Shown: positions 6,196 through 59,400 of the stretch, piece after piece
Layout of the letters: the number at the start of each line of letters is the position of its first letter
How positions within the stretch are numbered: position 1 is the first letter of the stretch
Source: Rhodanobacteraceae bacterium
GTDB taxonomy: Bacteria; Pseudomonadota; Gammaproteobacteria; Xanthomonadales; SZUA-5
DNA length: 64,000 bases
Assembly (NCBI GenBank): GCA_031425695.1
Contig: JANPJV010000116.1
Coordinates: 120 to 64,119, forward strand
Reading direction: 5' to 3'
Position numbers and translations under genes: made by a program
The notes under the pieces: model-generated
Told to the model about the DNA's origin: nothing
Seen by the model: only the letters and a program-made list of their open reading frames with translations
Databases searched by the model: none

Positions 6196-6296
6196 GGGCA
6201 GGCTCCGTGGGCGTGTCGGGTGCTCGGCAGCCATATTACTGCGGCGACGCGCGCTGCGGCATTCAAAGCGGGGCCCGAACCGCTGGCTTATCGTGG

Positions 6297-6466: not shown

Positions 6467-6470
6467 TCGT

Positions 6471-35451: not shown

Positions 35452-35610
35452 ATGCACCCGAACGACAAGGCACCACAGGACCCGCCGATTCCGTCGATCA
35501 AGATCGAAGACCTGCCGGTCGAAAGCGGCAAGGACGCAGACGTCAAGGGCGGCCCCGCCTACATGAAACTCGGCGACATCAAGGCCGAAGTCGCTCCGAA
35601 CCGACCCTGA
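35452..35610 (+). CDS. putative double-glycine-leader peptide P3 (52 aa)
   Basis: GAGGAG 8 nt upstream of the ATG and a strong terminator hairpin immediately downstream. MHPNDKAPQDPPIPSIKIEDLPVESGKDADVKGG / PAYMKLGDIKAEVAPNRP has the same architecture as the two small ORFs at the C39-ABC locus. Confidence 0.5.
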   Translation: MHPNDKAPQDPPIPSIKIEDLPVESGKDADVKGGPAYMKLGDIKAEVAPNRP

Positions 35611-39540: not shown

Positions 39541-40713
39541 TCAGCGAAAATTGCGCTCGCGCAGGGCGCGCATCGGCTCCAATGCGAGCTCGAGCAGGGT
39601 GCGGCGTCCGGTCAGGACGCGCGCCTCGCCGGTCATGCCGATGCGCAACGGCATCTGTGGACCGCTGCCGATCGGCAGCGCTGCCAGTGCGAAGAATTCC
39701 GGCGCGGTGCGGCCGCGTTCCGGGGTCGGGCTGATGAAGGTCAGTTGCGTGCGCACCGAGCCGTGGCGCTGATAGGGATAGGCGGCCAGCAGCAGCCGCA
39801 CTTCCTGCCCCGTCCGCACGCGCGGCACGTCCGGCTCCGGCAGCACCAGGCGCACCTGCGCCGCGGCATTTTCGCGCGCCAGCTGACACAGCTCGGCCCC
39901 AAGCGCGATCACGCTGCCTGGTGTCTGTTCGGTCAGGCTCACGACGACCGCATCGTATGGCGCACGGATCGATTCGAGGTCGCCCTGGCTTTCGCGCAAT
40001 TGGGCGCGCAATGCGCCGCTCTGCACGCCCAGCTTGTCGACCAACAGCGCCTCTTCGCTGCGCTCGCGTGAACGCTGGTCGATTCGTTCCTGGCGTTGGC
40101 GCCGCAGTTGCTGTAGCTGCTGTTGGGCGAGTACGCGGGCGCTCTCGGATTCTGCGACGACCAGCTGGTCCGCGAGCAACGTGAGCTGGGGCAAAAGCCC
40201 ATCGGCCACGGCCTTTTCCTTGCGCGCGACGATCGCTCGCGTGGCGGCATGGTGCTGATCGCGAAAGTCGAGCTCGCGCCGCGCCAGCAGCAGCTGCGCA
40301 TCGTATCCCGCGAGCTCGGACCGATGCGCGAGGTCACGCTGCACGGTCTGTTCGGTGAGTGCGTGCTGGTCCTGGCCGACCTGCTGCAGACGTGCATCGG
40401 CGTCGCGCACGCTGTCACTGCGAATCGCGAACAGCTCGTCGCCAGCCTTGACCAATTGCCCCGCGCGCACTCGGACGCTCGCGAGCTGTCCGCCCACGCT
40501 CGCCTGAACCGGCGCGGCGCCATCCACCGGCTCGATGACGAATGGCGCGACCACCGTTTCCGGCAGCTGGAAACCGACCGCGAACAGAGCCGCCGCGAGC
40601 GCCAGCGAAATCAGCAACCAGCCCGTCCAGCGCGCGACCTTTGCCGGCGGGTCGACAGGCAACAGGCCGGAAGGTTGGTCGAAGGAGCGGTCGGGCAGCG
40701 CTGGCGCGCTCAT
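39541..40713 (-). CDS. HlyD-family membrane fusion / secretion protein
   Basis: N-terminal TM (WLLISLALAAALFAV), biotinyl-lipoyl-like hairpin (G.L..V.V..GQ.VKAGD.LF.I), long coiled coil, C-terminal beta-barrel (..PLRIGMTGEARV). Confidence 0.9.
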   Translation of the reverse strand: MSAPALPDRSFDQPSGLLPVDPPAKVARWTGWLLISLALAAALFAVGFQLPETVVAPFVIEPVDGAAPVQASVGGQLASVRVRAGQLVKAGDELFAIRSDSVRDADARLQQVGQDQHALTEQTVQRDLAHRSELAGYDAQLLLARRELDFRDQHHAATRAIVARKEKAVADGLLPQLTLLADQLVVAESESARVLAQQQLQQLRRQRQERIDQRSRERSEEALLVDKLGVQSGALRAQLRESQGDLESIRAPYDAVVVSLTEQTPGSVIALGAELCQLARENAAAQVRLVLPEPDVPRVRTGQEVRLLLAAYPYQRHGSVRTQLTFISPTPERGRTAPEFFALAALPIGSGPQMPLRIGMTGEARVLTGRRTLLELALEPMRALRERNFR

Positions 40714-40735: not shown

Positions 40736-43875
<3,140 letters not shown>

Positions 43876-43879
<4 letters not shown>

Positions 43880-44159: not shown

Positions 44160-44591
44160 ACGCCTCGTCAGATTATTTTTCGGCAGCCGGCACGCTCTAG
44201 CTTTGCCAGATTCGCCCGACAGGTGAGAAGGCGCGGATGGTCCGCCGGCAACGCCTGCTCAAAGATGCGCAGCGCACGCTCCTACAGCTGGGCAGCCTCG
44301 ATGAAATCCCCCTGACGCTTGCGCAACAACCCGAGATTGGTGAGGGTCAGGGCTGTACTTGCCCAGCACGGCGCGGTTGTTGAGCAGCGGCACGAGTGCT
44401 GGAGAATCCGCGCCGAACAACTGTTCCGCGAGCGCCAGCGCCTGCTCGAACGCCGACCGCGACTGCGGGTACTGGCCTAGATCGCACAGCCGATTGGCAA
44501 GCTCGTGGAGTTCCTGCAGACGAGCAAGCTCGGTGGCAGCCGGTCGCGATATGTCCCCGCGTAAGCTCAATCCAGCCCAGCCAGCATCCAA
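44160..44591 (-). pseudogene. TPR-repeat gene remnant (frameshift plus in-frame stop)
   Basis: One frame reads ..ANRLCDLGQYPQSRSAFEQALALAEQLFGADSPALVPLLNNRAVLGKY. The TPR-like sequence continues in another frame as ALTLTNLGLLRKRQGDFIEAAQL-stop-ERALRIFEQALPADHPRLLTCRANLAKL. Confidence 0.55.
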
Positions 44592-45571
44592 TGAACATGC
44601 CGAGTCAGCAAGGCGCCCACTAGCTGTTCCACCAGCACATCTTCGAGCCTGGCCGCGAGGAAGGGATCGGCGAGGTTGGGTTCGATCAAGCGCGTGAACC
44701 CCAGCAGCAACTGACGCTCACCGTCGACTATGACCTCAGTGACCATGCCGGGCCGGATCTGGAACAACGCCTGGCGCCACGATCCGGGCAGATCGGACAC
44801 CCACCAGCGTTCAGTGCGATGCGCAAAGCCGCCAAGGGCGGCAATCTCAAGAAGGCTCTGCCCGTCCTCGATCACGCAGTGACGCGCCTCGCGCGCCGCA
44901 TCGAGGCGATCGAACTCGACGACTTCACCTTCGATCCGCAGCCACTGGCGCCGGTCCTGCGCGAGGAGGCGCTCGCGGGCGTCGTTGGTGATCGTTTCGG
45001 AGAGATGGGCAGAGAAGCCGGCGTCGAGCGCGTCCCAGCACTGCAGCGCCGGACCATCCACGCACGCTCGTACCTCAGCGGCCGCCGCCACTCGAGCTGC
45101 GAACGCTCTTGCGACCAGCCGGAAGTCGTCCGAAAGAATGATATCAATCTCAGCGTTGGCTACAGAAGCCGCGCCGCTGTCCAGCAGGCGTCGTCGCATG
45201 CCCGCACGCAGATCGGCGAAGCTGAGTGCGCGCGCAGAAAGCCAGGCCAGGCAATCCTGCGCGCTTACCAGGCCATGCGCGTAGCGAAAGGCCTGGACAG
45301 CCGCATCGACGGCTGACTCGTCGACTGGTGCGCTCGTTGGTTGTCGTGCACTCGGAGCGGATCCAACGTCGTCGCCCAGCACCAGTGGCGCGACGGCGCG
45401 AACATCGGCAACGGTCCAGACCCGCTGCGCTGCTGTGAATACGGGCAGTTGCAGTCGAGGGTGGGACTCCGCTTCCGCGGAACTGGCGTCTTTGCGCATT
45501 GCAAGGCCCATGCAAACTCCGGCAATTGTGCCCGCGATCGCCATCAGTGATATTTGGCCTTCGCGCGCCAC
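44567..45571 (-). CDS. accessory protein of the peptide locus; possibly a degenerate PpiC/rotamase-like peptide-maturation protein (start uncertain)
   Basis: Sits 18 nt downstream of P2. ..AVQAFRYAHGLVSAQDCLAWLSARALSFADL.. and C-terminal ..LLEIAALGGFAHRTERWWVSDLP..ALFQIRPGMVTEVI... resemble parvulin-type accessory proteins by eye only. Confidence 0.6.
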   Translation of the reverse strand: MAREGQISLMAIAGTIAGVCMGLAMRKDASSAEAESHPRLQLPVFTAAQRVWTVADVRAVAPLVLGDDVGSAPSARQPTSAPVDESAVDAAVQAFRYAHGLVSAQDCLAWLSARALSFADLRAGMRRRLLDSGAASVANAEIDIILSDDFRLVARAFAARVAAAAEVRACVDGPALQCWDALDAGFSAHLSETITNDARERLLAQDRRQWLRIEGEVVEFDRLDAAREARHCVIEDGQSLLEIAALGGFAHRTERWWVSDLPGSWRQALFQIRPGMVTEVIVDGERQLLLGFTRLIEPNLADPFLAARLEDVLVEQLVGALLTRHVHWMLAGLD

Positions 45572-45589: not shown

Positions 45590-45745
45590 TCAGGCAATTC
45601 CGAGCTGCTTGAGATTGTTGGAGCGGCTCCTGCCACCGATGACGTCCTGTTCGGGTTCCAGATCAGTGCCGTCGATCTGATTGGGAACCGGTTGCGAGGC
45701 GTCGTCACCGCTGGTCGGTGGGTTTGAATTGTGAGTAGTGTCCAT
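45590..45745 (-). CDS. putative double-glycine-leader peptide P2 (51 aa)
   Basis: GAGGA 6 nt upstream of the ATG. MDTTHNSNPPTSGDDASQPVPNQIDGTDLEPEQDVIGG / RSRSNNLKQLGIA. Confidence 0.55.
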   Translation of the reverse strand: MDTTHNSNPPTSGDDASQPVPNQIDGTDLEPEQDVIGGRSRSNNLKQLGIA

Positions 45746-45943
45746 GTGCGTCCTCAATGGGCATGGCGCATCCCGAGTGGCCCGTGGCTGGACACGCGGT
45801 CGAGTGCACAGCACCAGTACGCAAGATCGCGCGGCCACAGATCAGAATAATCGTTGCGGATCGGTTCAATGGGCCACCCTGACACCACCGGGCCATATGG
45901 CATGATCCGGCGCCTCGCTGAAATGTGATGCGATCGGGTCAGG

Positions 45944-48900
45944 ATGCGGCGCATCTCCCTGCTTCACCGGATTTGTCTGCTGGGTGGCCTGCTGCTGGCG
46001 AGCACTGGCGCCTTTGGCCGGACCATGGTGGTTCGCCATTTCAGCAGCACCGAAGGTCTGCCGGTCGCCAGCGCGAGCGCTGCGCGCGTCGACGCGGATG
46101 GTTTCCTCTGGGTGGCGACTCACGACGGCCTGGCGCGTTTCGATGGTCGCGAGTTCACCGTCTACGACGCCGCCAGCAACCCGGACATGTCGAGCAACCG
46201 CATGAACGGGCTGCACGCGGATTCCGCGCGGGCGCTATATGCGGTGTCCCTGCGTGGCGAGCTGCTGGCGGTGCGTTCTTCCGGCATCAAGCGCCTTCGC
46301 CCGGATGCCAGCGACCCTGAATCGCCCATCCATTACCTGGAGCCTGAGAGCCTTTGCCTGACACTGAACCGGGGCCGGTTCTGTCCAAACGGCAGCGGCG
46401 GGTTCTCGCTGCGGAAACAGTTTGCGGAGCCCGGACGCGTCAAACTCGCGCTCTCGGCGGGCGCTGATGCAGTTTGGGAAATCGTCCCATTCCAGGGCGT
46501 CTACCTGGATGCCATCGGCGGTCGAAGCCTGGTGCACGCGGATCCGGGCCTGGTGCTGCAGCCGAGCCTGGGCGAGACGGCGATCGCCGTCGCAACCGAT
46601 GACGGAGAATTGCTGCTCGCTACTGAGAACGGACTGCTCCGGGTAACCGCCGACGGCGGCCGTTATCTTGAAACCGCCGACAAGCAGCTCGTCGTGCTGC
46701 AGCTGCGCGCCGAACCAAAGGGCGGGCTCTGGGTGGGCGCCGATGATGGCCTGTATCAGTTGCACGCTGGCGAACTCAAGCGCGTGGAGGCGACGGCGCG
46801 GTCGCTCGCCAGCTCACGCAGCTGGCGCGGACCGGACGGCGCGCTGTGGCGCTCCACCGATGGCGAACTCTACCGCGAGGCGACCCTGCAGCTTTCCAGT
46901 CGCGGGCAGATTCGCGACCTCTACTTTGACCGCGACGGCAGCGTATGGGTCAGCACGCTGCGCGACGGCATCTACGCCTTGCACGAGGCACGCGTCGATC
47001 TGCTCAACGCTGATTCCGCGATGGTCAGCGACAACACCTACTCAGTCTCCCGAGCCACCGACGGCAGCATGTGGCTGGGCAGCCTCGGCGGCGGCATCCA
47101 GCGTGTAGATGGCGCCGGCACGGTTCGAAACTATGGACTGGAGGCCGGGCTGCCGGGGCTCAATCCGTGGGTCGTGGCGGTTGCGCCGGACGCCAGCGTG
47201 TACGCCGCGACCTTTGCGCCGGGTCTCTATCGCAAGGCGGCGGACAGCGAAAATTTTTCACCGGTTGCGTTGCCTCCGGCGCTCCAGGAGCGCCAGATCT
47301 TTGCGCTCAGCTTTGCCCCGGATGAAAAGCTCTGGCTCGGCAGCGCCGACGGCGCATGGCTTCGAGAGGGCGACGGCTGGCAACGGATCTGGCCCGAGGG
47401 CCGCAGCGAACGGGTTCACGCCGTGCTGCATGGGGATGCTGGCGGGGTGCACCTGGCAAGCGGCGACGGGCTGTGGCGGATCGACCACGCTGGTGCGCAC
47501 GCAGTCGCAAGCTCATTGGTGGCCGGTGTGCCCGTGCGCGGCCTGGCCCGTGACAGCCAGGGCACGCTTTGGGGCAGCACGGAAGGTCGCGGGCTGGTCC
47601 GCATCGCCGCCGACGATGTCGAAGGCAGCAAGGCGGTCCTGATCGGCCGTCCCGCCGGGCTGCCCTCGAACAGTCCGCATGCCGTGGTTGAAGATGCGAC
47701 CGGCAGTCTCTGGGTGAACAGCAACCAGGGCATCTTCCGTCTGACGCGCGCCGGCATTGCCGATTACCTGGAGGGTCGCAGCCGCGTCATTTCGCCGCTG
47801 ACGCTGGGCCTGGCCGATGGCTTGTCGGAGCTCGAGGGTAATGGCGGCGTTCAACCCGCTGCGGCAGTGGACTCCGCCGGGCGCATCTGGTTTCCATCGC
47901 AGCGCGGCATCGTCCGCATCGACACTGCGCGCTTGCCGCTGCGTCGCCAGCCACCGCGCGCCGTGATCGACGGGATCGACAGCCAGGGCTCGCCGGTGAC
48001 GCTGGCCGAGCACGGACTGCCGCTCGGGGTGCGCTCGGTCCAGGTGCGCTACAACGCGGCTGACCTGCACGCCGGCGCGGAAGTGCGCTTTCGGTACCGC
48101 TTGTACCCAGTCGACCAGAACTGGACTGACGCCGGCACCCGGCGTGTGGCCGCTTTCGCGGCGCTGGCGCCCGACCGCTACCGGTTCGAGGTCATTGCCG
48201 GCAACAGCGATGGATTCTGGTCAGCCGCGCCGGTGGTCCTCGAATTCCTGGTGCCAGCCCATTGGCACGAATCGAGGGAGTTTCGCTGGTCCCTGGGTCT
48301 GGGGGTGTTGCTGCTATCGATCGCATTGGCGCAGTGGCGCGTGCATCGACTGCGCCAGCGCGCAGTAGCCCTCGACGCCCAGGTGGATCTGCGCACGCGC
48401 GAGCTCAGCACCGAGAAGGAGCGCGTCGAATCGACCTTGGCCAGCCTGGCCACCGCACATTCCGATCTCGCCCTCACCCACGGTGAAATCGAGCTGCGCA
48501 ATCGCAAGCTTGCCGAGCAGACGGCGCGACTCGAGAGCCTGGATCGATTCCGTACCCGACTGCTGGCAGATGTCAGCCACGAGTTGCGCACGCCATTGAT
48601 GCTGATCAAGTTGCCGCTGCGTGAGCTCGTCGAGGGCGCGAAGAAACTCGCCGCAACGGATCGGCAGCGCCTGCAGTTGCCCTTGCAGCAGACCGAGCGC
48701 TTGAGCCATCTGGTCGAACAGTTGGTGGGACTGGTGCAGGCCGAAGCCGGGCAGTTGCGGCTCAAGGTCCGGCGCATCGACCTCATCGGGTGGGCCCGTG
48801 GACTGATTGCCGCGTTCGAGCCGATCGCCGAGCGCCACGGAGTACAGCTGGAGTTGCACACCGGGTTGGACAGCCTGGCGGCCTATGTCGACGCCGATCA

Positions 48901-49957
48901 CCTCGCGACGATCTTGGGCAATTTCCTGGACAACGCCCTGAAATACGCCCCAGGCGCTTCGATCGTCCGCGTGAGCATCGAGACCAATGCGCCGGGCGAT
49001 TGGGCGCACGTCAGCGTTGCCGACCGCGGACCCGGCTATCCACCGGAACTTGCCGACTCGCTATTCGACCGCTTTTTTCGTGCCGAGGGGCCGCCGCGTG
49101 CGGGTCGCGAAGGCTTGGGGATCGGCCTGGCGCTCGCCCGCGAATTGGTCGAACTGCACGGCGGGCGCATCGGCACTTCGGTCAGCCCGGCCGAGGGCAC
49201 CGTGTTCTGGTTGGATCTTCCGCTCGGCAGCGCCCATATCGCACTCGACGAGGTAGCACTGGAAGGCGCGGGCGAAGGCTTGCTGCCGATCGCGCAGGCC
49301 GGTGATGGCGGCATCCTGCTGGTCGAAGACCATCCGGAATTGGCGGCGTATTTGACCGAACGGCTGGCCGAATTCTTCCCTGTCCGCACCGTCGCGAGTG
49401 CCGAATTGGCCGTGCCGGAAATGCAGCGCGGCGATATTCGATTACTGGTCAGCGACGTCAAGCTTCCCGGGATGGACGGCGTCGAGCTCTGTCGCACACT
49501 GAAAGCGATGCCGGCTTTCAAGGCATTGCCGGTGATATTGATTTCGGCAAAATCCACGCTGATGGATCGCGATGCGGGGATCGCGGCAGGAGCAGTGACC
49601 TGGATTACCAAACCATTTGAACTTTCCACGCTGATTGCAGAAATTCGCCATTTCTGGCCCGACAGCGGTCGCCCCAGTCGCCCAGCCGGCATTCCCAATC
49701 AAACTCGCAGCCAATCTCCAAGACCCGATCCTGCAGGTCGTGCGTACTCGCATGGCGGATCCGGAATTCGGGGTGGCCGAATGGTCCGCTGCGGCGCATC
49801 TGTCCGACCGGCAATTGCGCCGCAGGGTGACCGAACTCACCGGTCTTTCGCCGATTGTCTGGTTGCGCGAGCAGCGTTTGGAGAAGGTCCGGGAATTGAT
49901 CAGCAACGGTGCCTGCCAGACGATCGCCGAGGCCGGCCGTCAATGCGGCTTCGATAA
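45944..49957 (+). CDS. hybrid sensor histidine kinase/response regulator with two-component-regulator-propeller + Y_Y_Y sensor (HTCS-like). The last ~100 codons of the drawn ORF are probably out of frame.
   Basis: Signal/TM, repeated propeller blades (..LWVAT.DGL.RFDG..), Y_Y_Y (VRFRYRLYPVDQNW..YRFEV), TM, H-box LLADVSHELRTPL, HATPase (DRGPGYP..GLGIGLALARELVELHGG), receiver (LLVEDHPEL..LLVSDVKLPGMDG..ISAK..ITKPF). Confidence 0.85.
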   Translation: MRRISLLHRICLLGGLLLASTGAFGRTMVVRHFSSTEGLPVASASAARVDADGFLWVATHDGLARFDGREFTVYDAASNPDMSSNRMNGLHADSARALYAVSLRGELLAVRSSGIKRLRPDASDPESPIHYLEPESLCLTLNRGRFCPNGSGGFSLRKQFAEPGRVKLALSAGADAVWEIVPFQGVYLDAIGGRSLVHADPGLVLQPSLGETAIAVATDDGELLLATENGLLRVTADGGRYLETADKQLVVLQLRAEPKGGLWVGADDGLYQLHAGELKRVEATARSLASSRSWRGPDGALWRSTDGELYREATLQLSSRGQIRDLYFDRDGSVWVSTLRDGIYALHEARVDLLNADSAMVSDNTYSVSRATDGSMWLGSLGGGIQRVDGAGTVRNYGLEAGLPGLNPWVVAVAPDASVYAATFAPGLYRKAADSENFSPVALPPALQERQIFALSFAPDEKLWLGSADGAWLREGDGWQRIWPEGRSERVHAVLHGDAGGVHLASGDGLWRIDHAGAHAVASSLVAGVPVRGLARDSQGTLWGSTEGRGLVRIAADDVEGSKAVLIGRPAGLPSNSPHAVVEDATGSLWVNSNQGIFRLTRAGIADYLEGRSRVISPLTLGLADGLSELEGNGGVQPAAAVDSAGRIWFPSQRGIVRIDTARLPLRRQPPRAVIDGIDSQGSPVTLAEHGLPLGVRSVQVRYNAADLHAGAEVRFRYRLYPVDQNWTDAGTRRVAAFAALAPDRYRFEVIAGNSDGFWSAAPVVLEFLVPAHWHESREFRWSLGLGVLLLSIALAQWRVHRLRQRAVALDAQVDLRTRELSTEKERVESTLASLATAHSDLALTHGEIELRNRKLAEQTARLESLDRFRTRLLADVSHELRTPLMLIKLPLRELVEGAKKLAATDRQRLQLPLQQTERLSHLVEQLVGLVQAEAGQLRLKVRRIDLIGWARGLIAAFEPIAERHGVQLELHTGLDSLAAYVDADHLATILGNFLDNALKYAPGASIVRVSIETNAPGDWAHVSVADRGPGYPPELADSLFDRFFRAEGPPRAGREGLGIGLALARELVELHGGRIGTSVSPAEGTVFWLDLPLGSAHIALDEVALEGAGEGLLPIAQAGDGGILLVEDHPELAAYLTERLAEFFPVRTVASAELAVPEMQRGDIRLLVSDVKLPGMDGVELCRTLKAMPAFKALPVILISAKSTLMDRDAGIAAGAVTWITKPFELSTLIAEIRHFWPDSGRPSRPAGIPNQTRSQSPRPDPAGRAYSHGGSGIRGGRMVRCGASVRPAIAPQGDRTHRSFADCLVARAAFGEGPGIDQQRCLPDDRRGRPSMRLR

Positions 49958-50006
49958 TCCAAGCTACCTTTACCGGCTGTATCGCGCCCAGTTCGGAGAA
50001 GGCTGA
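49635..50006 (+). CDS. AraC/XylS-type HTH domain ORF, probably the frameshifted output domain of the preceding hybrid sensor
   Basis: ..ADPEFGVAEWSAAAHLSDRQLRRRVTELTGLSPIVWLREQRLEKVRELI.....TIAEAGRQCGFDNPSYLYRLYRAQFG. The frame opens right after a TGA at 49632, and only a TTG start is available. Confidence 0.7.
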   Translation: MQKFAISGPTAVAPVAQPAFPIKLAANLQDPILQVVRTRMADPEFGVAEWSAAAHLSDRQLRRRVTELTGLSPIVWLREQRLEKVRELISNGACQTIAEAGRQCGFDNPSYLYRLYRAQFGEG

Positions 50007-50241
50007 GCGCGCACCTGTCGGTATCGACAGCTTGCTGCACCCGCTTCCCTGGCCGTGGCGCGCCAGCGCCCAGAGCCTACGCCCGGGCGTGACCAAGGGA
50101 CGATACGTCACGAAGTCCGAATCGTGCCACTCGACGGCCGATTCCTGTCTGTGCGCGATGACCGCGTGTCTGCATGCTGGATTGGCCTCGCACCCTCGCG
50201 GGTCCGGGCGCTGCTCCCCACGCACGCAAAGGTCGACCGCC

Positions 50242-53200
50242 ATGACGAACGCACGCTCGCCGCACCCCTTTCAAACGTCGTTGCTTGCAAAACTGCGACG
50301 AATAGGAATGGTCATGGCGATGTTGCTGGCGGCCTTGCCATTGTCAGCCCAGGTCGTCTCCACCCTTGCCGACAACGTTTCGTCCCCACCGGCCGGCAGC
50401 TTGCGCGCGGCACTCAACACGGCCAACACCGCTGGAAGTGCGGCGACGGTGACCTTCAACGTCCCCGGCGGCGGCACCATCAATCTCGCCGGCGCACTGC
50501 CGGTCCTTCGCAATCCGAACGGAATCAGTGTCGACGGTGCCAACGGCGGCCAAGGCGCCATCGTGATCGACGGCGGCTCGTCCTCGGCCACCACCGGCGA
50601 CCGCATCTTCTTCCTCGGTGTACGCGGCAGCGACAGCACCGGATTGACCGCCACCCCTGGCGCCAACTGGACCATTTCCAACTTGACCCTGCAGGACGGC
50701 AATGCGCGCGGCGGCGCCGGCGGCAATGGCGGTTCCCCCGGCGACCCCTATTCCGGCGGTGGCGGCGGCGCTGGCCTGGGCGGCGCTCTGTTCGTCAACG
50801 AGGGCAACGCCACCTTGAGCAACGTCGTGTTCGCGAATAACCGCGCGACGGGTGGCAACGGTGGCACCCTGTCCGGCCCGACCGGGTCCACCGGTGCCGG
50901 CGGCGGCATGGGCGGCAATGGCGGCAGCGCCGCCGCCTTCAGCGGTGGCGGCGGCGGTGGTTTTGGCCTGGGTGCAAAAGGCGGCAATGGCAATGATCCG
51001 ACGGCGGGCGCGGGCAGCCTCGGCCGTTGGACCGGCGGCAGCAGCGCCGGCGCGGGCGCGGGCGCGGGTGGCGGCGCGGGCGCCGCCAGCGGAGGCGGCG
51101 GCGGCGGCTCTTCAAACAACCAGAGCGCTGGCGGCGGCGGTCCCGGAGCGGCAGCCGGCACTACCACGGGCGCGCCCGGCGGCCAGGGCAAGGGCGGCGA
51201 CGGCGGCTTCGGCGGCGGCGGCGGCGCCGGTGGTGGCAATAACCTGCAGGTGGGCGGAATCGGCGGTTATGGCGCCGGCGGCGGTGGTGCCGGTGCCGGC
51301 GATGGCGGCAACGGCGGCTTCGGCGGCGGCGGCGGCGGTGGCGCGGGTTCCCCCATTGGTACCGGCGGCTTCGGCGGCGGCAACGGCGCGAGCGGCTACC
51401 AGGGCGGTGGCGGCGGCGCTGGCCTCGGCGGCGCGGTGTTCGTGCGTCAGGGTGCGACGCTGGCGATCAGCGGTAGCAACATCGCCGGCGGCGCCGTCGC
51501 GGGCGGCAGCGCGGGTCCGAGCGCGGGCGCCGGCTCGGGCATAGGCACCGCGGCCTTCCTCGCCGGTTCGCTCAACTGGAGCGTGGCCACCGGCCAGACC
51601 GTGACCCTCGCTCCTGGCCAGACCCTTGGCGGTGGTACCAACGCGCTGATCAGTGGCGGCCTGACCAAAACCGGTCCCGGCACGCTGCAGCTGAATAGCG
51701 ACAACAGTTACGTCGGGCCGACTGCGGTGTCGGCCGGCCAGTTGCAGGTCAACGGCAGCCTGCTCGGCAGCGGTGCGATCAGCGTGGCCAGTGCCGCCAC
51801 GCTGGCCGGCACCGGCACGCTGACGGGCGCCACCAGCGTGTCCAGCGGCGGCACCCTGGCACCCGGCCAGGGCGCGCCCGGTCGCCTGAACTCGGCTAAC
51901 CTGGCGTTGGTCGCCGGCGCGACCTTCGCCGCCGAAATCACCGGAGCGACCGTCGCCACCCAGTACGACCAGCTCGATGTCACCGGCACCATCAACCTGG
52001 GCGGCGCGACGCTGACGCTGTCCGGCGCGCACGTGGCGAGCACCGGGCAGAGCTTCGTGCTGATCGACAACGACGGCAGCGACGCGGTGACCGGCACCTT
52101 TGCCGGCCTGGCGCAGGGCAGCACGATCCTGCTTAATGGTGTCAGCTTGTCGATCAGCTACAACGGCGGGGATGGCAACGACGTCGTGCTGACGGCAGCG
52201 GTCGATCCGTGCTCGTCTTACGCATTCCCCTACACGCTGGCAGGTGCCGACAACACCGCACTGGTAGCTAACCTCCGCCAGGCGGTCCAGTGCGCGAACG
52301 CCAACGGCGCGGGTGCGGACACGATCCTCCTGAGCGGCCAAACTGTCGCCCTGCCCGCGTCCGCGCCGTTTGCTGACTATTCCGGGCAGACCGGACTTCC
52401 GCAAATTACGTCCACCATCAATATTCGCAACGGCACGCTGTTGCATGACTTGAGCATGGGCGGTTTCCTGTTCCGCACGTTCTCCATCGCCGCAGCCGGC
52501 ACCTTGAATCTGCAGAACATGGAATTGTCGGGCGCCTCGGCGCCGTCGCCTGGCGGTGCCTTCCACAACTCGGGCACGGTGAACGTGACCAACAGCACCA
52601 TCCACGGGTATGACACCAACAATCGTGCCGGTGTCTTGCACAACGCCAGTGGTGCCACGGCGACCATCACCAATGCCGTGCTTTACGACAATAACGCCGT
52701 CAATGCGCACGCCATCGACAATTTCGGCTTGGTCACCATCGTCAACTCAACCTTCGACAAGCACACGTCGATCAGTAATTTTGGCGCCATTCTGGAAGGC
52801 ACCGGCTACATCGTTCGCAACAGCATCCTCTGGAATCCCGGCAGCGGACCGACGCAGATATCGTCTGGAAATACGGTCAGCGACAGCATCGTGAAAGGCG
52901 GCTATGGCAGCGGGACCAATATCCTGAATACCAGCCCGCTGTTTGTGAACGAAGGCGCCAATGACTACCGTATTGGGTTATCCAGTCCTGCCTTGAATGT
53001 GGGTGTGAACAGCTATGTGCCACTCGATAGCACCGATGTCGATGGCGACAGCAACACCAGCGAAAGCCGACCAGACCGTGATCTCAATCCACGCATCGTC
53101 GCGACAACAGTCGATATGGGTGCGTACGAACGTCAGGACGCAGTTGCTGCCGACTTCACCGTCACCACCACTTCGACGAGCATCTCGGTCACCGACAGCA

Positions 53201-56200
53201 CCAGCAACGGCAGCACGTTGGCAGCCAGCGAGCCGGTTGCCAACACCCTGCGCTTCGACGCCGCGGGCCGCACGTTCAGCGTCAATGGCGGGCCGCTCAT
53301 CAACGGCAACTCTGGCGATCTAGCGCTGGCCGGGATCACCAGCCTCACAGTCACGGCCGCCGGCGGCGTGTCTGCGGCTTCCGGCGCCGTCTTCAACATC
53401 GGCGCCACCAGCTTCAACGCCACCGCACCGGTGATGCTGACCGGCGGCACGCTGAAATCCACCGGCACCGCCACGGTCAATCCGGCCATCGTGATGACGG
53501 CGAACAGCGATCTGGCGGCAACTGGCGGCGTGATGACGCTGGCCGGCGCCATCAGCGGCGATTTCACGCTGCGCACCTTCGCTGCTGGCACCTATCGATT
53601 CGCCAGCACGGCCAGCACCTTTGCGCGGCTGCAACTGGCTTCGGGCACGGCGGCCCTGGCTGGCAACAACACCCTGCCGCCGGCGATCGACATCTTCAAT
53701 TCGGCCAGTTTCAACCTGAATGGCTTCAGTCAAACGATCGATTTCTACGCCAGCAGCGGCACCACCCAGAACACCGGCGCCGCGGCCAGCCTGACCCTCG
53801 GCGTGGCCGGCAGTTCGTCCAGCTTCGGCAGTCCGAATTACGCTGGACCAATCAGCGGACCGATCAACCTGACCATTGCAACAGCCGGCGGCCAGACGCT
53901 GAGTAGCAACAGCAGCAATTTCACCGGCACCATCGACATATTCGCGACGCTTGCCGTCACCGGCGTGAATGCGCTTGGAGCCGTCGGCGCGGGCAACACC
54001 ACGACGGTTGCGGCGACGGGCGTTCTCGACCTGCGCAACGTTGCCTACGCGGGACTCGAGGCGATCACCGTGAATGGCGGCACGCTGCGCGTCAGCACCG
54101 GCGTCAGCAGCCTTCCCGGCACTGTCACCTTGAATACCAGCACCGCCACCATCCAGGTCACCAATGTCGGCAGCGAATTGAACCTCAATGGCGTGGTGAG
54201 CGGCACTCAAGGTTTCAGCAAGACGGGCAACGGGATTCTGTACTTGAGCCAGTCCAACAACTACGTGGGTCCCGTCGTCATCAACGGCGGCAGTGTGCTG
54301 GTCACTGGCTCTACGCTTGCGGCCAGCACGGTCAGTGTAGCGAGCGGTGGCACGCTGGGTGGTACGGGCACCGTCAATGGCGCCGTTTCGGTGGCATCCG
54401 GCGGCACGTTGGCACCTGGCGTCACAGTCGGCACGCTGCACTCCGCAAACGTGACACTGAGCTCCGGCGCCACGTTTGCGGTCGGCATCACCGGCGCGAC
54501 GGTCGACACCCAGTACGACCAGCTCGACGCCAACGGCACGGTGAACCTCGGCGGCGCCACACTCGCGTTGTCCGGCGCCTTCGTGCCGACGACCGGCCAG
54601 AGCTTCATGCTGATCGACAACGACGGCAGCGACGCGGTGACGGGCACCTTTGCCGGGCTGTCGCAAGGCAGCATCGTGAACTTCAACGGTGTCACGCTGG
54701 CCGTCAGTTACACCGGCGGCACCGGCAACGACGTCGTGCTGACCGCGGTGGTCATCCTGCCAACCACCACCGTGGTCTCGCTGAACCGCGCCAGCGGCAA
54801 TCCGCGCAACACGCCTAGCGTCACCTGGACCATCACCTTCGCGAATCCAGTCGACGGCTTGACGCCTGCCAACTTTGCGGTGGTACCGACCGGGCTCGGC
54901 GGTACACCCACCGTGACAGGCGTCAGCGAAGCGAGCGGTCCACCCGCCACTCAGTGGAACGTCACCGCCAGCACCGGCACCGGCAGCGGCACGCTGGGCT
55001 TGAACCTGGTCAACGACAGCGGTCTCACGCACGACGTGACCAACCTGCCGTTTACGGGTCAAGTTTTCAACATTGACCGCGCGCCGCCAACGGTGACCAT
55101 CACGGTGGCGGACACCAGCTTGACCGCCGGCGAGACTTCACCGGTGAGCTTCGTGTTCAGCGAAGCCGTCAACCAGGTTCCCCCGGCTAACCTGACCGTC
55201 GCGAACGGCACCCTTTCTTCGCTTACGACCTCCAACAACATCACCTGGACGTCGACACTCACCCCGACTGCGGGGATCTCCGATCCGACCAATGTGATCA
55301 CGCTGGATACCAGCGGTTCCAGTGATCCGGCTGGCAATCCCGGCGTCGGCATCGCGACGTCGAACAACTATGCGATAGATACTTCACTCCCGATCCTTAC
55401 CGTCGGCGATTTTTCACGGACGGAAGGCTTCAATGGTGTTTCCGCCTTCGACGTGACGGTCAGCCTGTCGGCACCCGCGCTGGCGGGTGGAGTGAGCTTC
55501 GATATCGCAACGGCGGATGGCACCGCCACAGCCGGAAGCGACTACAGCGCCCGCAACTTCACCACGCAGACAATTCCCGAGGGCAGCTCCAACTATGTCC
55601 TCTCGGTTCCGGTTTTCGGCGACGCTGTGCAGGAATTGGACGAGACGCTCCTGGTCAACGTGAGCAATGTCAGCGGCGCCACGATCGGCGACGGCCAGGG
55701 TCAGGTCACGATCGTCAACGATGACACCGCCGGCATCGGCGTCACACCGGCGAGCGGGCTGGTGACCACCGAAGCCGGTGGCACGGCGACGTTTACCGTC
55801 GTGCTGGCCAGCCAACCGACCGCCAATGTGACCGTTGGCCTGGCCAGCTCGGATCTCACCGAAGGTACCGTCGCACCTGCCAGCGTGGTCTTTACGTCCG
55901 CCAACTGGAACGTCGCGCAGACCGTCACCGTGACCGGCGTCGATGACCTGATCGTCGATGGCACTGTCGCCTACACGATCACCACCGCGCCGGCGACGAG
56001 CTCGGACAGCAACTACAACGGCATCGATCCAGCCAATGTCAGCGTCAGCAATAGCGACAACGACGCCGCGGGGATCACCGTCAGCCCCACGGCCGGCCTG
56101 GTCACCACCGAAGCCGGTGGCACGGCAACGTTTACGGTCGTGCTGGCCAGCCAGCCTGCCGCCAACGTGGGCATCGGATTGTCGAGCTCCGACACCACCG

Positions 56201-59200
56201 AAGGCACGGTTGCGCCAGCGAGTCTGGTCTTCACCCCGGCCAACTGGAGCACTGCGCAATCGGTCACGGTCACAGGCGTCGACGACGCCCTGGTCGACGG
56301 CACCATCGCCTACTCGATCGTCACCGCCGCCGCGACCAGCAGCGATTCCAACTACAACGGCTTGAACGCGAGCGATGTCGGCGTCAGCAACAGCGACAAC
56401 GACAGCGCGGCCGTTACGGTGATCCAGTCGAGCGGCAATACCGCCGTGACGGAAGGCGGCAGCACCGACAGCTTCACCGTGGCCTTGAGCAGCCAGCCGG
56501 CCAGCAATGTCACCATTGCATTAACCGGAACCCAGGTAACCACTGGACCAACCAGCCTCACCTTCACGACCGTCAATTGGGCAACGGCGCAAACGGTCAC
56601 GGTGACCGCGATCGACGATGCCGTCGACGAAGCCACGCCGCACGCCGGCTCGGTGACCTTCGTGGTAACCAGCAGCGATGGCAATTACAACGGCGCCACC
56701 GTCGCCCCGGTCAGCGTCGCGATCACCGATAACGACGCATCCGGCATCACCGTCGCGCCGACCACTGGCCTCATCACCACCGAGGCCGGTGGCACCGCCA
56801 GCTTCACCGTCGTGCTGGGCAGCCAGCCGACCGGCAACGTCACCATCGGCTTGTCGAGCTCCGACACCACCGAAGGCACGGTTGCGCCAGCGAGCCTGGT
56901 CTTCACCCCGGCCAACTGGAGCACTGCGCAATCGGTGACGGTCACAGGCGTCGACGACGCCCTGGTCGACGGCACCATCGCCTACTCGATCGTCACCGCC
57001 GCCGCGACCAGCAGCGATTCCAACTACAACGGCTTGAATGCAAGCGATGTCGGCGTCAGCAACAACGACAACGACAGCGCGGCCGTCACGGTGATCCAGT
57101 CGAGCGGCAATACCGCCGTGACGGAAGGCGGCAGCACCGACAGCTTCACCGTGGCCTTGAGCAGCCAGCCAACCAGCAACGTGACCGTGCTGTTCAGCAC
57201 CAGCGGGCAGCTCGACGCCAGCCCGGGCAGCGTCGTGTTCACCACCCTCAATTGGAACGTGGCGCAATCGGTAACCGTGACGGCGACGGACGACAACCTC
57301 GTCGAGGGTGCCACCGTCGAATCGATTGGTGCCTCGGTGAGCAGCAGCGATCCGAGCTACAACAACATTGCGGTTGCAGCCGTGAGCGTGGCGGTGACCG
57401 ACAACGACGCCGCCGTGGTCAGCTTCGCGCCAGCCAGCGTCAGCCAGCTCGAGGCGACCAGCCCGATGGCGTTCACGGTGACCTTGAGCAAGCCGGTTGC
57501 ATCGGGCGTCACGCTGAGCTTGAACAGCGCCTTCGGAACCGCGCTCGCGAGCGACTTCACGCCCATCGTGGGCGCAACGGTCAGCTTTCCGGCCAGCAGC
57601 ACGGCAGCGCAGACGGTGAACGTCGTGATCACCAACGACGCCATCGACGAGAGCGACGAGCAGTTCAGCCTGACGCTGTCGAATCTCGTCGCAACTGGCA
57701 ATGTGTCGCTGGGGACCGCCATCGCCGGCGGCACCATCCTCGACGATGACGCCATTCCGACCCTGGCGATCAACAGCCTCAGCCAGCCAGAAGGCAACGC
57801 CGGCACCACGACCATGACTTTCACAGCAAGCTTGTCGGCGGCATCGGGCCAGGATGTGACTTTCATGCGGGCTACCGCAGACGGTACGGCGACGGTCGCC
57901 AACAACGACTATGTCGCGCTGGCCCCCGCACTGCTGACGATTCCGGCCGGTCAACTGAGCCTTAGCATTCCGGTTACGATCAACGGCGACGGCGTTTTCG
58001 AAGGCAACGAAAGCTTCAACCTCAACCTGACCTCCGTCACCAACGCCAGCCCCGGCAGCCTCACCGGCACCGGCACGCTCGAAGACGACGACCAGCAGCC
58101 GACGACGACCACGATCACCGATACGCCGGACCCGAGCGTGGTCGGCCAGCCGTTTATAGTGAGCGTGACCGTTGCCGCCCAGACCACCTCCCCGGTCGGA
58201 ACGTTGACGATCGGCGATGGCAGTGCCAGTTGCGGACCGCTCACGCTGACTCCGGCGGCGGCTCCGAACAGCACCGCGAGTTGTGCGCTGATCAGCACCA
58301 GCGCGGGCCCACGTACGTTGACGGCTGTCTACACGCCGGCAAGCCAGAGCTTTGCGGCCAGTACCGGCACAGCCACACATCAGGTTAATCCGGCCAACAC
58401 CTCGATCAGCGTGGCCGGACCTGCGCGCGTCCGCGTCAACCAAACAGGCAGCTTCACTTTCGCATTGAGTGTCGATGCGCCCGGCGCAGGATCACCAGCC
58501 GGCACGGTCACGCTGAGCCACGGTGCGAGCAGTTGCCAAGTGACGGTACCAACCGCCATGCCGAGCTGCACCCTGCCCTTCTCGACGCTGGGTCCTCGCA
58601 CGATCGCGGCCGCGTTTGCACCCAGCGACGGGTCTTTCAACGCCTCGAACTCGAGCGGCGCTGGCAATGCACGGACCGTGGTCTATGCACTGAGCGATAT
58701 CGAGGTGGAAAAGTCGGATGCTCAGAGCGTGGTCTCGCCCGCCGACCTGCTGGTGTACACCGTCAGCGTACGCAACCTCGGCCCGGATGCGGCTGTGAAT
58801 ATCCGCGTGCTGGACCGTGTGCCGGTCGGGCTCGGTAATGTTGTCTGGTCGTGCTTCGGCAACGGCGGTGTCAGTTGTCCGCAGGCGAATGGGACTGGCG
58901 ACCTGGACCTCACGGTCGCGAACTTCGCGGTTGGCGCGACGCTCAACATTTCCTACCAAGGCAATGTCGTTGGCGATCCCGCGCAGATCGTCAACACCGC
59001 GCAGGTCGAGCTGCCCAATGACACATCCGTCGAGGACCCCAACCTAAGCAACAACAGCGACACGGATGTGAATATCAAGGACAACCTGTTCCGCGATGGC
59101 TTCGAGGGTCCGCAGGTCGATGCGCCGTCAGGATCGTTCCAGCTGCCGGCCAGCAACCTGCGCAGCGCACTCGACCGCGTCGCCGTAGTGGCTTATCGGC

Positions 59201-59400
59201 TGACCGACTCGAGGGGCGAAGCGCTGCGCATCTACGCTCGCGTGATCGACGGCGAACTGCAGTTTGCCCTGGCCAAACGCGATACGCAGGGTTTCCTGTC
59301 GCTTGACCCATGGCGCAGCTACATGGCTGATCCGACGCTGCACTGGTCAGCCGTGCCTTCGGCTGGTGGCTGGACGATGGTGGGAGCCGAATTGCGCTGA
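50242..59400 (+). CDS. giant secreted surface protein (about 3052 aa): beta-helix/autotransporter-associated beta-strand repeats, Gly-rich region, many Calx-beta/Ig-like repeats, DUF11-like domain, DGFE motif and a 97-aa C-terminal extension
   Basis: Signal peptide (..MVMAMLLAALPLSAQ). GGLTKTGPGTLQLNSDNSYVGPT.. and GFSKTGNGILYLSQSNNYVGPV.. repeats. Two copies of ..TQYDQLD..G..NLGGATL.LSGA.....GQSF.LIDNDGSDAVTGTFAGL. About 15 repeats of ~110 aa (TEAGGTATFTVVLASQP.. / DGTA.AG.DY). VWSCFGNGGVSC...NLFRDGFE. Confidence 0.9.
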   Translation: MTNARSPHPFQTSLLAKLRRIGMVMAMLLAALPLSAQVVSTLADNVSSPPAGSLRAALNTANTAGSAATVTFNVPGGGTINLAGALPVLRNPNGISVDGANGGQGAIVIDGGSSSATTGDRIFFLGVRGSDSTGLTATPGANWTISNLTLQDGNARGGAGGNGGSPGDPYSGGGGGAGLGGALFVNEGNATLSNVVFANNRATGGNGGTLSGPTGSTGAGGGMGGNGGSAAAFSGGGGGGFGLGAKGGNGNDPTAGAGSLGRWTGGSSAGAGAGAGGGAGAASGGGGGGSSNNQSAGGGGPGAAAGTTTGAPGGQGKGGDGGFGGGGGAGGGNNLQVGGIGGYGAGGGGAGAGDGGNGGFGGGGGGGAGSPIGTGGFGGGNGASGYQGGGGGAGLGGAVFVRQGATLAISGSNIAGGAVAGGSAGPSAGAGSGIGTAAFLAGSLNWSVATGQTVTLAPGQTLGGGTNALISGGLTKTGPGTLQLNSDNSYVGPTAVSAGQLQVNGSLLGSGAISVASAATLAGTGTLTGATSVSSGGTLAPGQGAPGRLNSANLALVAGATFAAEITGATVATQYDQLDVTGTINLGGATLTLSGAHVASTGQSFVLIDNDGSDAVTGTFAGLAQGSTILLNGVSLSISYNGGDGNDVVLTAAVDPCSSYAFPYTLAGADNTALVANLRQAVQCANANGAGADTILLSGQTVALPASAPFADYSGQTGLPQITSTINIRNGTLLHDLSMGGFLFRTFSIAAAGTLNLQNMELSGASAPSPGGAFHNSGTVNVTNSTIHGYDTNNRAGVLHNASGATATITNAVLYDNNAVNAHAIDNFGLVTIVNSTFDKHTSISNFGAILEGTGYIVRNSILWNPGSGPTQISSGNTVSDSIVKGGYGSGTNILNTSPLFVNEGANDYRIGLSSPALNVGVNSYVPLDSTDVDGDSNTSESRPDRDLNPRIVATTVDMGAYERQDAVAADFTVTTTSTSISVTDSTSNGSTLAASEPVANTLRFDAAGRTFSVNGGPLINGNSGDLALAGITSLTVTAAGGVSAASGAVFNIGATSFNATAPVMLTGGTLKSTGTATVNPAIVMTANSDLAATGGVMTLAGAISGDFTLRTFAAGTYRFASTASTFARLQLASGTAALAGNNTLPPAIDIFNSASFNLNGFSQTIDFYASSGTTQNTGAAASLTLGVAGSSSSFGSPNYAGPISGPINLTIATAGGQTLSSNSSNFTGTIDIFATLAVTGVNALGAVGAGNTTTVAATGVLDLRNVAYAGLEAITVNGGTLRVSTGVSSLPGTVTLNTSTATIQVTNVGSELNLNGVVSGTQGFSKTGNGILYLSQSNNYVGPVVINGGSVLVTGSTLAASTVSVASGGTLGGTGTVNGAVSVASGGTLAPGVTVGTLHSANVTLSSGATFAVGITGATVDTQYDQLDANGTVNLGGATLALSGAFVPTTGQSFMLIDNDGSDAVTGTFAGLSQGSIVNFNGVTLAVSYTGGTGNDVVLTAVVILPTTTVVSLNRASGNPRNTPSVTWTITFANPVDGLTPANFAVVPTGLGGTPTVTGVSEASGPPATQWNVTASTGTGSGTLGLNLVNDSGLTHDVTNLPFTGQVFNIDRAPPTVTITVADTSLTAGETSPVSFVFSEAVNQVPPANLTVANGTLSSLTTSNNITWTSTLTPTAGISDPTNVITLDTSGSSDPAGNPGVGIATSNNYAIDTSLPILTVGDFSRTEGFNGVSAFDVTVSLSAPALAGGVSFDIATADGTATAGSDYSARNFTTQTIPEGSSNYVLSVPVFGDAVQELDETLLVNVSNVSGATIGDGQGQVTIVNDDTAGIGVTPASGLVTTEAGGTATFTVVLASQPTANVTVGLASSDLTEGTVAPASVVFTSANWNVAQTVTVTGVDDLIVDGTVAYTITTAPATSSDSNYNGIDPANVSVSNSDNDAAGITVSPTAGLVTTEAGGTATFTVVLASQPAANVGIGLSSSDTTEGTVAPASLVFTPANWSTAQSVTVTGVDDALVDGTIAYSIVTAAATSSDSNYNGLNASDVGVSNSDNDSAAVTVIQSSGNTAVTEGGSTDSFTVALSSQPASNVTIALTGTQVTTGPTSLTFTTVNWATAQTVTVTAIDDAVDEATPHAGSVTFVVTSSDGNYNGATVAPVSVAITDNDASGITVAPTTGLITTEAGGTASFTVVLGSQPTGNVTIGLSSSDTTEGTVAPASLVFTPANWSTAQSVTVTGVDDALVDGTIAYSIVTAAATSSDSNYNGLNASDVGVSNNDNDSAAVTVIQSSGNTAVTEGGSTDSFTVALSSQPTSNVTVLFSTSGQLDASPGSVVFTTLNWNVAQSVTVTATDDNLVEGATVESIGASVSSSDPSYNNIAVAAVSVAVTDNDAAVVSFAPASVSQLEATSPMAFTVTLSKPVASGVTLSLNSAFGTALASDFTPIVGATVSFPASSTAAQTVNVVITNDAIDESDEQFSLTLSNLVATGNVSLGTAIAGGTILDDDAIPTLAINSLSQPEGNAGTTTMTFTASLSAASGQDVTFMRATADGTATVANNDYVALAPALLTIPAGQLSLSIPVTINGDGVFEGNESFNLNLTSVTNASPGSLTGTGTLEDDDQQPTTTTITDTPDPSVVGQPFIVSVTVAAQTTSPVGTLTIGDGSASCGPLTLTPAAAPNSTASCALISTSAGPRTLTAVYTPASQSFAASTGTATHQVNPANTSISVAGPARVRVNQTGSFTFALSVDAPGAGSPAGTVTLSHGASSCQVTVPTAMPSCTLPFSTLGPRTIAAAFAPSDGSFNASNSSGAGNARTVVYALSDIEVEKSDAQSVVSPADLLVYTVSVRNLGPDAAVNIRVLDRVPVGLGNVVWSCFGNGGVSCPQANGTGDLDLTVANFAVGATLNISYQGNVVGDPAQIVNTAQVELPNDTSVEDPNLSNNSDTDVNIKDNLFRDGFEGPQVDAPSGSFQLPASNLRSALDRVAVVAYRLTDSRGEALRIYARVIDGELQFALAKRDTQGFLSLDPWRSYMADPTLHWSAVPSAGGWTMVGAELR
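56179..57185 (+). repeat. near-identical ~335-bp direct duplication inside the giant gene (56179-56513 and 56851-57185, offset 672 bp)
   Basis: By eye the two copies differ at only about ten positions, most of them in the last 25 bp. The flanking repeat units are much more diverged. Confidence 0.8.

Follow-up and report, generated by a model that had tools for sequence, protein, structure and literature searches.

The 64,000-nucleotide stretch of contig JANPJV010000116.1 analysed here (hereafter, the window), which derives from a Rhodanobacteraceae bacterium, carries on its minus strand a peptide-export locus headed by a small gene, P2. An earlier reading of the letters made without database searches (the sequence-only reading) had taken P2 for a double-glycine (GG)-type precursor with a basic core of 13 amino acids (aa) at the head of a locus encoding a C39 peptidase-containing ATP-binding cassette (ABC) transporter (PCAT) and an HlyD-family protein, and domain searches and alignment bear this assignment out. 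The predicted core of P2 resembles, at the level of the sequence, a segment of the helix of DUF1559 prepilin-like proteins found in other soil bacteria. Starting from P2, the operon runs on the minus strand through genes for a SurA/PrsA-like chaperone, a remnant of a tetratricopeptide repeat (TPR) protein, a second precursor (P1), an exporter with two cyclic nucleotide monophosphate (cNMP)-binding domains followed by C39 and ABC domains, and an HlyD protein; a hybrid sensor kinase is encoded divergently. The features are as follows, with related loci from other genomes and metagenomes numbered L001 onwards.

45590–45745, minus strand: P2 precursor gene, 51 codons plus a TGA stop, by translation, homologues, alignment and codon analysis
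45745–45632, minus strand: P2 leader, codons 1–38, with the C-terminal end DLEPEQDVIGG
45631–45593, minus strand: predicted P2 core, codons 39–51, RSRSNNLKQLGIA
45751–45755, minus strand: Shine-Dalgarno-like GAGGA, 5 nt 5' of the P2 ATG
45756–45943, minus strand: intergenic region from the kinase to P2, the presumed promoter or operator
44567–45511, minus strand: probable SurA/PrsA/PEB4-like chaperone, 314 aa, by AF2 model, Foldseek and alignment
44168–44591, minus strand: remnant of the TPR-protein gene, by open reading frame (ORF) translations compared with L001 and L002
43876–44070, minus strand: P1, second GG-leader precursor, core PLSDSGWGGSARLNHNESQTLDDSM, of the GGSxRLNHNE cargo family
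40736–43879, minus strand: exporter, 1047 aa, with two cNMP-binding domains, C39 peptidase, ABC membrane domain and ABC ATPase, by Pfam
39541–40713, minus strand: HlyD-family membrane-fusion protein, 390 aa, by Pfam and NCBIfam
45944–49997, plus strand, divergent: hybrid sensor kinase with Reg_prop/Y_Y_Y propeller, HisKA, HATPase and receiver domains, by Pfam

Translation of 45590–45838 on the minus strand, which ends in ...THMDTTHNSNPPTSGDDASQPVPNQIDGTDLEPEQDVIGGRSRSNNLKQLGIA followed by the stop codon, places the ATG of P2 at 45745–45743 and its TGA at 45592–45590. The ORF is exactly the one quoted in the sequence-only reading, which gave no strand; the GAGGA described there is also present, at a spacing of 5 nt (45755–45751) rather than the 6 nt claimed. 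The size of the ORF alone proves nothing, because such ORFs are common by chance in DNA of 65% GC (61–70% in this region): 164 ORFs of 30 aa or more fall wholly or partly within the 16 kb between 40000 and 56000. A search of a database of 5.8 billion proteins with the window P2 matched only P2 itself, small homologues being absent from that collection, and the homologues were reached through the contigs of 17 relatives of the SurA-like gene and one metagenome scan, which yielded L095. The expected conservation in related loci was thereby confirmed: L001, L004/L005 and L006–L008 each have a P2 homologue in the same place, immediately 5' of the SurA-like gene, and in L095 one stands in divergent orientation. 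The SurA-like proteins of the P2-bearing relatives are 57–74% identical to that of the window.

Comparison of the five distinct sequences of the P2 family (window, L001, L004, L007 and L095) revealed 21 invariant residues, including the first Met, DLEPEQ.V.GG and NNLKQ.GI, so that the family is characterized by DLEPEQxVxGG at the end of the leader and NNLKQ[LM]GI[AG] in the core. All five have the GG pair without variation and keep the boundaries of the core, the predicted start of the 13-aa core after VIGG coinciding with this pair in every homologue. An AGGA/GGAG sequence resembling a ribosome-binding site (RBS) precedes the ORF in all five cases. In the codon alignment, conserved codons differ only synonymously, at third positions, and the ratio of nonsynonymous to synonymous differences (pN/pS) is 0.20–0.47 over the recognition motif and core and 0.43–0.83 in the N-terminal part of the leader. 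Given this conservation across loci, the exclusively synonymous changes and the low pN/pS, P2 is a genuine gene that evolves under purifying selection, with its predicted cleavage point and C-terminus fixed.

The leader of P2, in which VIGG corresponds to residues 35–38, ends in DLEPEQDVIGG and thus fits the motif DLxPxxx[VAP]xGG. This motif was counted in 2.36 M translated residues from 94 related loci (the window, L001–L092 and L095), where it occurs 86 times against 2.5 occurrences expected from composition; it is present in 43 of the 94 loci, and 78 of the 86 occurrences are followed by no more than 60 aa before the stop. The leader of P1 shares the motif, in agreement with the sequence-only reading, which had also described P1 correctly. 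P2 does not conform to the canonical LSxxELxxIxGG leader, with hydrophobic residues at -4, -7, -12 and -15: position -4 is V, -7 is E, -8 is P, -10 is L and -15 is I, and the leader is hydrophobic at -4, -10 and -13/-15. No significant match was obtained between P2 and the TIGR01847 bacteriocin_sig, Pfam ComC, NHLP or lanthipeptide leader models. The genomic linkage is that of a PCAT substrate, P2 sharing its operon with a C39-competent ABC exporter and HlyD. In Pfam searches, the exporter has two cNMP_binding domains (E = 2.6e-38) N-terminal to Peptidase_C39 (E = 4e-38), the catalytic residues of which are intact (Cys in QIDEMDCGAAC, His in GNHWVV and Asp in IADP); these residues, C345, H418 and D434, are invariant in the family alignment and align with those of LahT150 (6MPZ), ComA and PCAT1.

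The core of P2 copies approximately residues 33–46 of mature DUF1559 prepilin-like proteins, a segment with the pattern RSQCxNNLKQxGxA. In Pfam, the L004 homologue matched a single family, PF07596 (DUF1559), at profile positions 9–22 (E = 0.01), and the L001 and L007 homologues matched the same family at positions 9/10–22 (E = 0.12 and 0.16); these matches score 12–16 bits, below the 23.3-bit cut-off, and do not cover the domain of ~268 positions, and the window P2 alone had no Pfam match. In pairwise comparison with a reference DUF1559 protein, WP_015250674, which starts MRRQG/ and carries N_methyl (PF07963) and DUF1559 domains, identity extends to 12 of 14 positions for the L004 P2 (E = 6e-7) and to seven of nine for that of the window (E = 0.003). 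We also assembled a joined query from three natural pieces, namely, the core of peptide 1 of L004, EAARR as found in L049 and L078, and the L004 P2 core. This query matched PF07596 at positions 1–22 with E = 6.8e-9, above the gathering score, and in 7.3 Gb of plasmid DNA (PLSDB) it retrieved four genes only, all annotated as DUF1559 and carried by planctomycete plasmids, with 67–80% identity over the full query length. Each natural core searched alone against PLSDB with tblastn found only those DUF1559 genes, at abutting coordinates of NC_019893 (14748–14801 and 14799–14840). The sequence similarity of the P2 core to the DUF1559 helix is specific. A regular-expression scan of P2 and all fetched PCAT loci detected no prepilin cleavage/methylation motif (G/FTLIE...), and a PDB search with the joined core recovered no DUF1559-like helix, its sole match being a chance hit to Cas2.

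The segment that precedes the P2-type one in the DUF1559 helix is the counterpart of a sister cargo family, the LLPAVQ type, with cores (I/L)(G)LLLPAVQKVREAARR corresponding to approximately residues 19–33 of the mature helix. In L004 (ahead of P2), L014, L049 and L078, the member sits just 5' of the SurA-like gene; in L015, L067, L068 and L072, it lies elsewhere in the locus:

L004 272–424, and ends at approximately L014 6094, L015 5979, L049 5364 and L078 5522, plus strand: sister-family ORFs
ends at approximately L067 11739, L068 9601 and L072 11931, minus strand: sister-family ORFs
core peptide listed beside the window Ser variant and the L004 Cys variant: LLPAVQKVREAARR

In Pfam and PLSDB, both families match DUF1559 alone, and together they tile the mature pilin-like helix, from ~19 to 33 and from ~33 to 46. 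The NNLKQ type of P2 is much the rarer, having been detected in the window, in four metagenomic relatives and nowhere else; GG-leader sister peptides occur in loci of Lysobacterales, Verrucomicrobiales and Hydrogenedentota. A search with the L049 precursor retrieved ~40 small proteins (P0169–P0207) with the sequence LLLPAVQKVREAAR(R), some of them with a GG leader. Many others, from Sphingopyxis isolates and other organisms, have a hydrophobic N-terminus and an AxA-type site, judged by eye to be a Sec-type signal peptide, and carry the motif at their very C-terminal end; there are two copies of it in P0172, and P0206 is a fragment of a true prepilin in which the helix is identical. The Sphingopyxis gene stands alone among housekeeping genes (L096–L098). 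The packaging of this sequence for export by two routes, with a GG leader and with a Sec-type signal, suggests that what is selected as cargo is the helix sequence as such.

What is conserved in P2 cores is (C)xNNLKQ[LM]GI[AG], not charge. The sequence-only reading had raised, as a speculation, the idea of a cationic P2 core complementing the acidic core of P1, and this idea found no support: the net charge of the core varies across the P2 family from ~+0.4 to +2.8, and no P1-type gene lies beside P2 in L004/L005 or L006/L007. In L004, P2 is partnered with an LLPAVQ-type peptide instead of P1.

The explanation that we favour, with slightly better than even confidence, is that the product of P2 is a ribosomal precursor, that the peptide exported from it is small and probably unmodified, and that this peptide copies a DUF1559 segment and serves as a helix mimic or decoy. 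The 38-residue acidic leader would present the recognition motif (I/V)x(V)xDLxPxxx(V/A/P)xGG, and the C39 cysteine-protease domain of the downstream cNMP-regulated exporter would cut after Gly38, whereupon the exporter, HlyD and an outer-membrane channel presumably encoded elsewhere would release RSRSNNLKQLGIA (monoisotopic mass, 1455.83 Da). The SurA/PrsA-like protein, probably a general accessory of this exporter family, would most likely hold or present the precursors. Pilin N-terminal helices contact neighbouring subunits and assembly proteins and, in Pseudomonas, also the sensor kinase PilS. Outside the producer, the peptide might accordingly stand in for the DUF1559 segment with its usual binding partners, such as adjacent subunits, the platform for assembly or a kinase that senses pilin, in bacteria that build DUF1559 filaments; the producer being a member of the Lysobacterales (Xanthomonadales), these targets may belong to other phyla. 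A broader proposal, which we put forward only tentatively and consider rather doubtful, is that several phyla secrete near-exact copies of consecutive segments of the DUF1559 helix (LLLPAVQKVREAARR; RSQCxNNLKQxGxA), by way of cNMP-gated PCATs or of Sec-type signals, with a third cargo family possibly copying the N-terminal strand of Hcp, as inter-bacterial decoys that disturb or report on the assembly or sensing of neighbours' filaments and secretion machines, which would constitute a new 'subunit-mimic' class.

Several observations weigh against the decoy explanation. The single natural cores give only weak E-values (0.01 to 3), the strong one requiring the assembled query. In the window P2, Ser (TCC) takes the place of the Cys shared by the four homologues and DUF1559, and the window core is the most diverged in the family, the one for which a Pfam search on its own gave nothing; decay of the locus, as signalled by a frameshift in the kinase and a deletion in the TPR gene, may have weakened the window copy. 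The same exporters also carry P1-type, RKxLFG-type and Gly/Ser-repeat cargo without detectable mimicry. Finally, we know of no route by which a 13-mer would reach the site of pilus assembly in a target cell.

Among the alternatives, P2 could be an ordinary autoinducer sensed by its producers, possibly through the divergent kinase, with the DUF1559 likeness reflecting only its origin from a captured gene fragment. A link between P2 and the kinase is suggested by one line of evidence, conserved divergent synteny in the window and L001, where the two genes are neighbours, and the ~110-nt intergenic stretch is conserved there and also in L007. GG peptides exported by PCATs are classic signals in the literature (ComC-type), and cNMP domains imply regulated export, as HetC binds ppGpp (PMC10986499). 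The kinase, however, is not adjacent to P2 in L004/L005 or L095, and in the window its gene carries a frameshift. Propeller sensors of the Reg_prop/Y_Y_Y kind are not known as peptide receptors, and the recruitment of two adjacent segments of one helix, one of them also in Sec-type form in unrelated taxa, is hard to account for by origin alone; we consider an autoinducer possible and, on balance, unlikely. Lower still is the probability that P2 acts as an unmodified small bacteriocin or microcin, killing competitors either by damaging membranes or by hitting an intracellular target unrelated to pilins. The architecture was indeed first described under the name of 'bacteriocin gene clusters' (PMC3140520) and the window core is basic (+2.8), but the charge drops to ~+0.4 in L095, the core is only 13–15 aa long and hydrophilic (grand average of hydropathicity, -0.04 to -0.93), its conserved residues are polar (NNLKQ) rather than arranged in an amphipathic cationic pattern, and no immunity gene is evident.

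That P2 is the precursor of a peptide made by ribosomes and modified post-translationally (RiPP), with enzymes encoded elsewhere or with the SurA-like or TPR protein as the modifier, seems very improbable. Cyanobacterial clusters often include modification genes (group II, PMC3140520), and the Cys conserved in four of the five P2 homologues could be modified or oxidized; yet Pfam and NCBIfam searches detected no modification-enzyme domain between 39.5 and 46 kb, the parvulin part of the SurA-like protein lacks an invariant His and the P2 core lacks proline, and P2 persists where the TPR gene is absent (L006) or deleted (window). We give least credence of all to the notion that P2 is non-functional here, either as a decaying copy or as an ORF conserved for some other reason, such as a regulatory leader: the Cys-to-Ser replacement, the kinase frameshift and the TPR deletion at the same locus would fit it, but the ORF, RBS, GG motif and NNLKQLGIA are all intact, as are the genes for the SurA-like protein, transporter and HlyD, and pN/pS against the closest relative is 0.47–0.51 rather than ~1.

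The export module itself is of a known kind. A C39 transporter of the long CAP_ED type is accompanied by HlyD and SurA in the cyanobacterial group I/II bacteriocin clusters (Wang et al., 2011; PMC3140520). HetC of Nostoc PCC 7120 requires its peptidase as well as its cNMP domain for function, the latter binding ppGpp, and its substrate is unknown (PMC10986499). The locus in the window shares with the CAP_ED/HetC clusters a cNMP-C39-ABC exporter, HlyD, a SurA-like (rotamase-fold) protein and small GG precursors; it differs from the CAP_ED clusters in its Lysobacterales host and nearest transporters (Lysobacterales and Verrucomicrobiota), in a SurA-like protein without a Pfam rotamase match, in the DLxPxxx[VAP]xGG leader, and in cores that copy a pilin helix and are not of the NHLP, Nif11 or HetP-like kinds. 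In the NHLP/Nif11 test, P2 had no NCBIfam match and the transporter scored 523 bits against TIGR03796, below the 853-bit cut-off. With the ComC/ComA, LahA/LahT, CtA/PCAT1 and colicin V/CvaB systems, the locus has in common a short precursor, predicted cleavage after GG, the C39-ABC triad and a membrane-fusion partner, but its leader is not of the LSxxELxxIxGG type and it has two extra cNMP domains and the SurA-like accessory. DUF1559/H-X9-DG proteins (Planctomycetota and Verrucomicrobiota; PF07596 plus PF07963) share the core segment, with up to 12 of 14 positions identical; P2, however, has a GG leader instead of the prepilin motif and lacks the hydrophobic anchor and the globular domain, which makes it a fragment-sized putative mimic and not a member of the family.

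A precedent for mimicry by this export route is offered by the RaxX/RaxB/RaxA system of Xanthomonas oryzae, in which a PCAT-exported GG-leader peptide, tyrosine-sulfated by RaxST, mimics the PSY hormones of plants. RaxX likewise comes from the Xanthomonadales, but the sequences are unrelated, no sulfotransferase is present here and the protein that P2 would mimic is bacterial. Full-text literature searches turned up nothing relevant on LLPAVQ or NNLKQ peptides, on H-X9-DG or on pilin mimicry by PCAT cargo. The exporter module and the peptide class are known, and a cargo that copies a pilin helix had not been recognized previously. PCAT-exported GG peptides are known as pheromones and bacteriocins, and the module of cNMP-PCAT, SurA and HlyD has been found by genome mining since 2011, with no substrate of understood function. 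It now has a defined leader motif and two cargo families that point to the helix of DUF1559, a large family of unknown function, as a concrete target. If the mimicry is functional, these peptides would provide a probe for the role of DUF1559 filaments and a bacterial precedent, analogous to RaxX, for peptide mimicry of a structural subunit of another bacterium; if it is only an evolutionary relic, P2 simply adds a small family of new cargo to an exporter type that was already known.

Cargo of other kinds accompanies these exporters. The P1-type family, with the motif GGSxRLNHNE, is separate from P2 and has relatives, detected with tblastn, in L001 and L058. In L001, these are multi-core precursors (6051–6545 and 7495–7800) with three and at least two tandem leader-GG-core units, respectively, each unit having its own DLPxxxxxVxGG recognition motif; the relative in L058 lies at ~5860–5955. 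Cores of a recurrent kind, IRLxDLxPxxxVxGG followed by (R/K)xx(L/V)FG..., stand beside cNMP-PCATs in Acidobacteriota, Verrucomicrobiota and Gemmatimonadota, and also beside cNMP-PCATs are very basic ALRKRxRN-type cores in Gemmatimonadota and cores of Gly/Ser/Asp/Asn repeats in Chthoniobacterales. Mimicry by the P1-type and RKxLFG-type cores was considered and rejected, neither having a Pfam or PLSDB match. A third precursor is encoded in the window:

35452–35610, plus strand: P3, third GG-leader precursor, MHPNDKAPQDPPIPSIKIEDLPVESGKDADVKGG/PAYMKLGDIKAEVAPNRP, with GAGGAG 7 nt upstream, ~4 kb beyond HlyD

Homologues of P3 occur in L078, L072, L067/L068 (as tandem KxGDIKGES repeats) and L009–L012. 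In targeted pairwise BLASTP against Hcp1 (1Y12), P3-type cores matched Hcp residues 2–34 and 6–17 (E = 5e-4 to 2e-3), and no Hcp match was obtained for them in Pfam (T6SS_HCP), PDB-wide or PLSDB searches; mimicry of Hcp, the tube protein of the type VI secretion system, is no more than a lead. The distant loci L009–L012 (~5090–7360), in which the SurA-like protein is 30% identical, encode P3-like GG peptides, two or three in number, and after them, still upstream of the SurA-like and PCAT genes, a methyltransferase-domain protein of ~480–500 aa and a GerE-type regulator; these loci possibly represent a modified variant of the system.

A cNMP-C39 query against 185,579 species genomes found 80 loci. 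The nearest transporters are from a Xanthomonas metagenome-assembled genome (79%) and a Lysobacterales one (67%), then from many Verrucomicrobiota (50–62%), followed by loci in Acidobacteriota, Gemmatimonadota, Hydrogenedentota and Planctomycetota. In nearly all 80 loci, a SurA-like homologue ends where the transporter begins, and the profile of the SurA-like family matches 1641 clusters at 50% identity. The idea that this protein is a partner specific to P2 was rejected, since it accompanies the transporter whatever the cargo. The 314-aa protein of the window consists of helical N- and C-terminal parts and a parvulin-like domain and had no match in Pfam, including the Pfam Rotamase family, or in NCBIfam. 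Its AF2 model (predicted local distance difference test, 86.9; predicted template modelling score, 0.77) gave as the top Foldseek matches 3nrk, 3rgc (PEB4/Cj1289), PrsA, SurA and LIC12922, with E-values down to 5e-5, so that its likeness to the SurA of the CAP_ED clusters is one of fold. The TM-scores are low (0.20–0.35), as the matched structures are multi-domain proteins with other domain arrangements. Because it has a hydrophilic N-terminus with no signal peptide and the family alignment shows no invariant His in the parvulin-like part, the protein is probably a cytoplasmic, non-catalytic chaperone.

The TPR gene of the window keeps the N-terminal ~65 aa and the C-terminal ~25 aa, with an internal deletion of ~480 nt relative to its homologues in L001 (300 aa) and L002 (259 aa). 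The window kinase changes frame at ~49685–49692, leaving its AraC-type helix-turn-helix (HTH) domain (49692–49997) in another frame; the orthologue in L001, 89% identical over residues 1–1249 in tblastn, is continuous with HTH_18. The frameshift could be a real pseudogenization or an assembly error, and likewise the locus as a whole may be decaying or may owe some of its differences to the assembly. In L007, a minus-strand gene lies upstream. The ~110 nt adjoining P2 (45756–45870 of the window) align with ~4650–4768 of L001 and ~1590–1701 of L007 and include the conserved elements TGATCTGTGG...GCGATCTTGCGTACTGGTG.TGTGCAC and a GATGCGCCA box ~20 nt 5' of the P2 ATG; the stretch is possibly the operator or promoter of the operon. 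On the P2 strand, a promoter scan returned no consensus sigma-70 site and no terminator, and a hairpin or attenuator 3' of P2 was discarded, as the sequence folds no better than its shuffles (z = -1.06 to +0.39). The window contains no Rfam family and no tRNA. The plus strand also carries, at 49909–59400, a giant ORF for an adhesin-like surface protein (3163 aa; PATR, Big_12, Calx-beta and DUF11 repeats), which contains a stretch of 77–81% GC at ~50.8–51.6 kb; as annotated, this ORF begins in overlap with the frameshifted kinase HTH, so that translation probably starts at a point further downstream.

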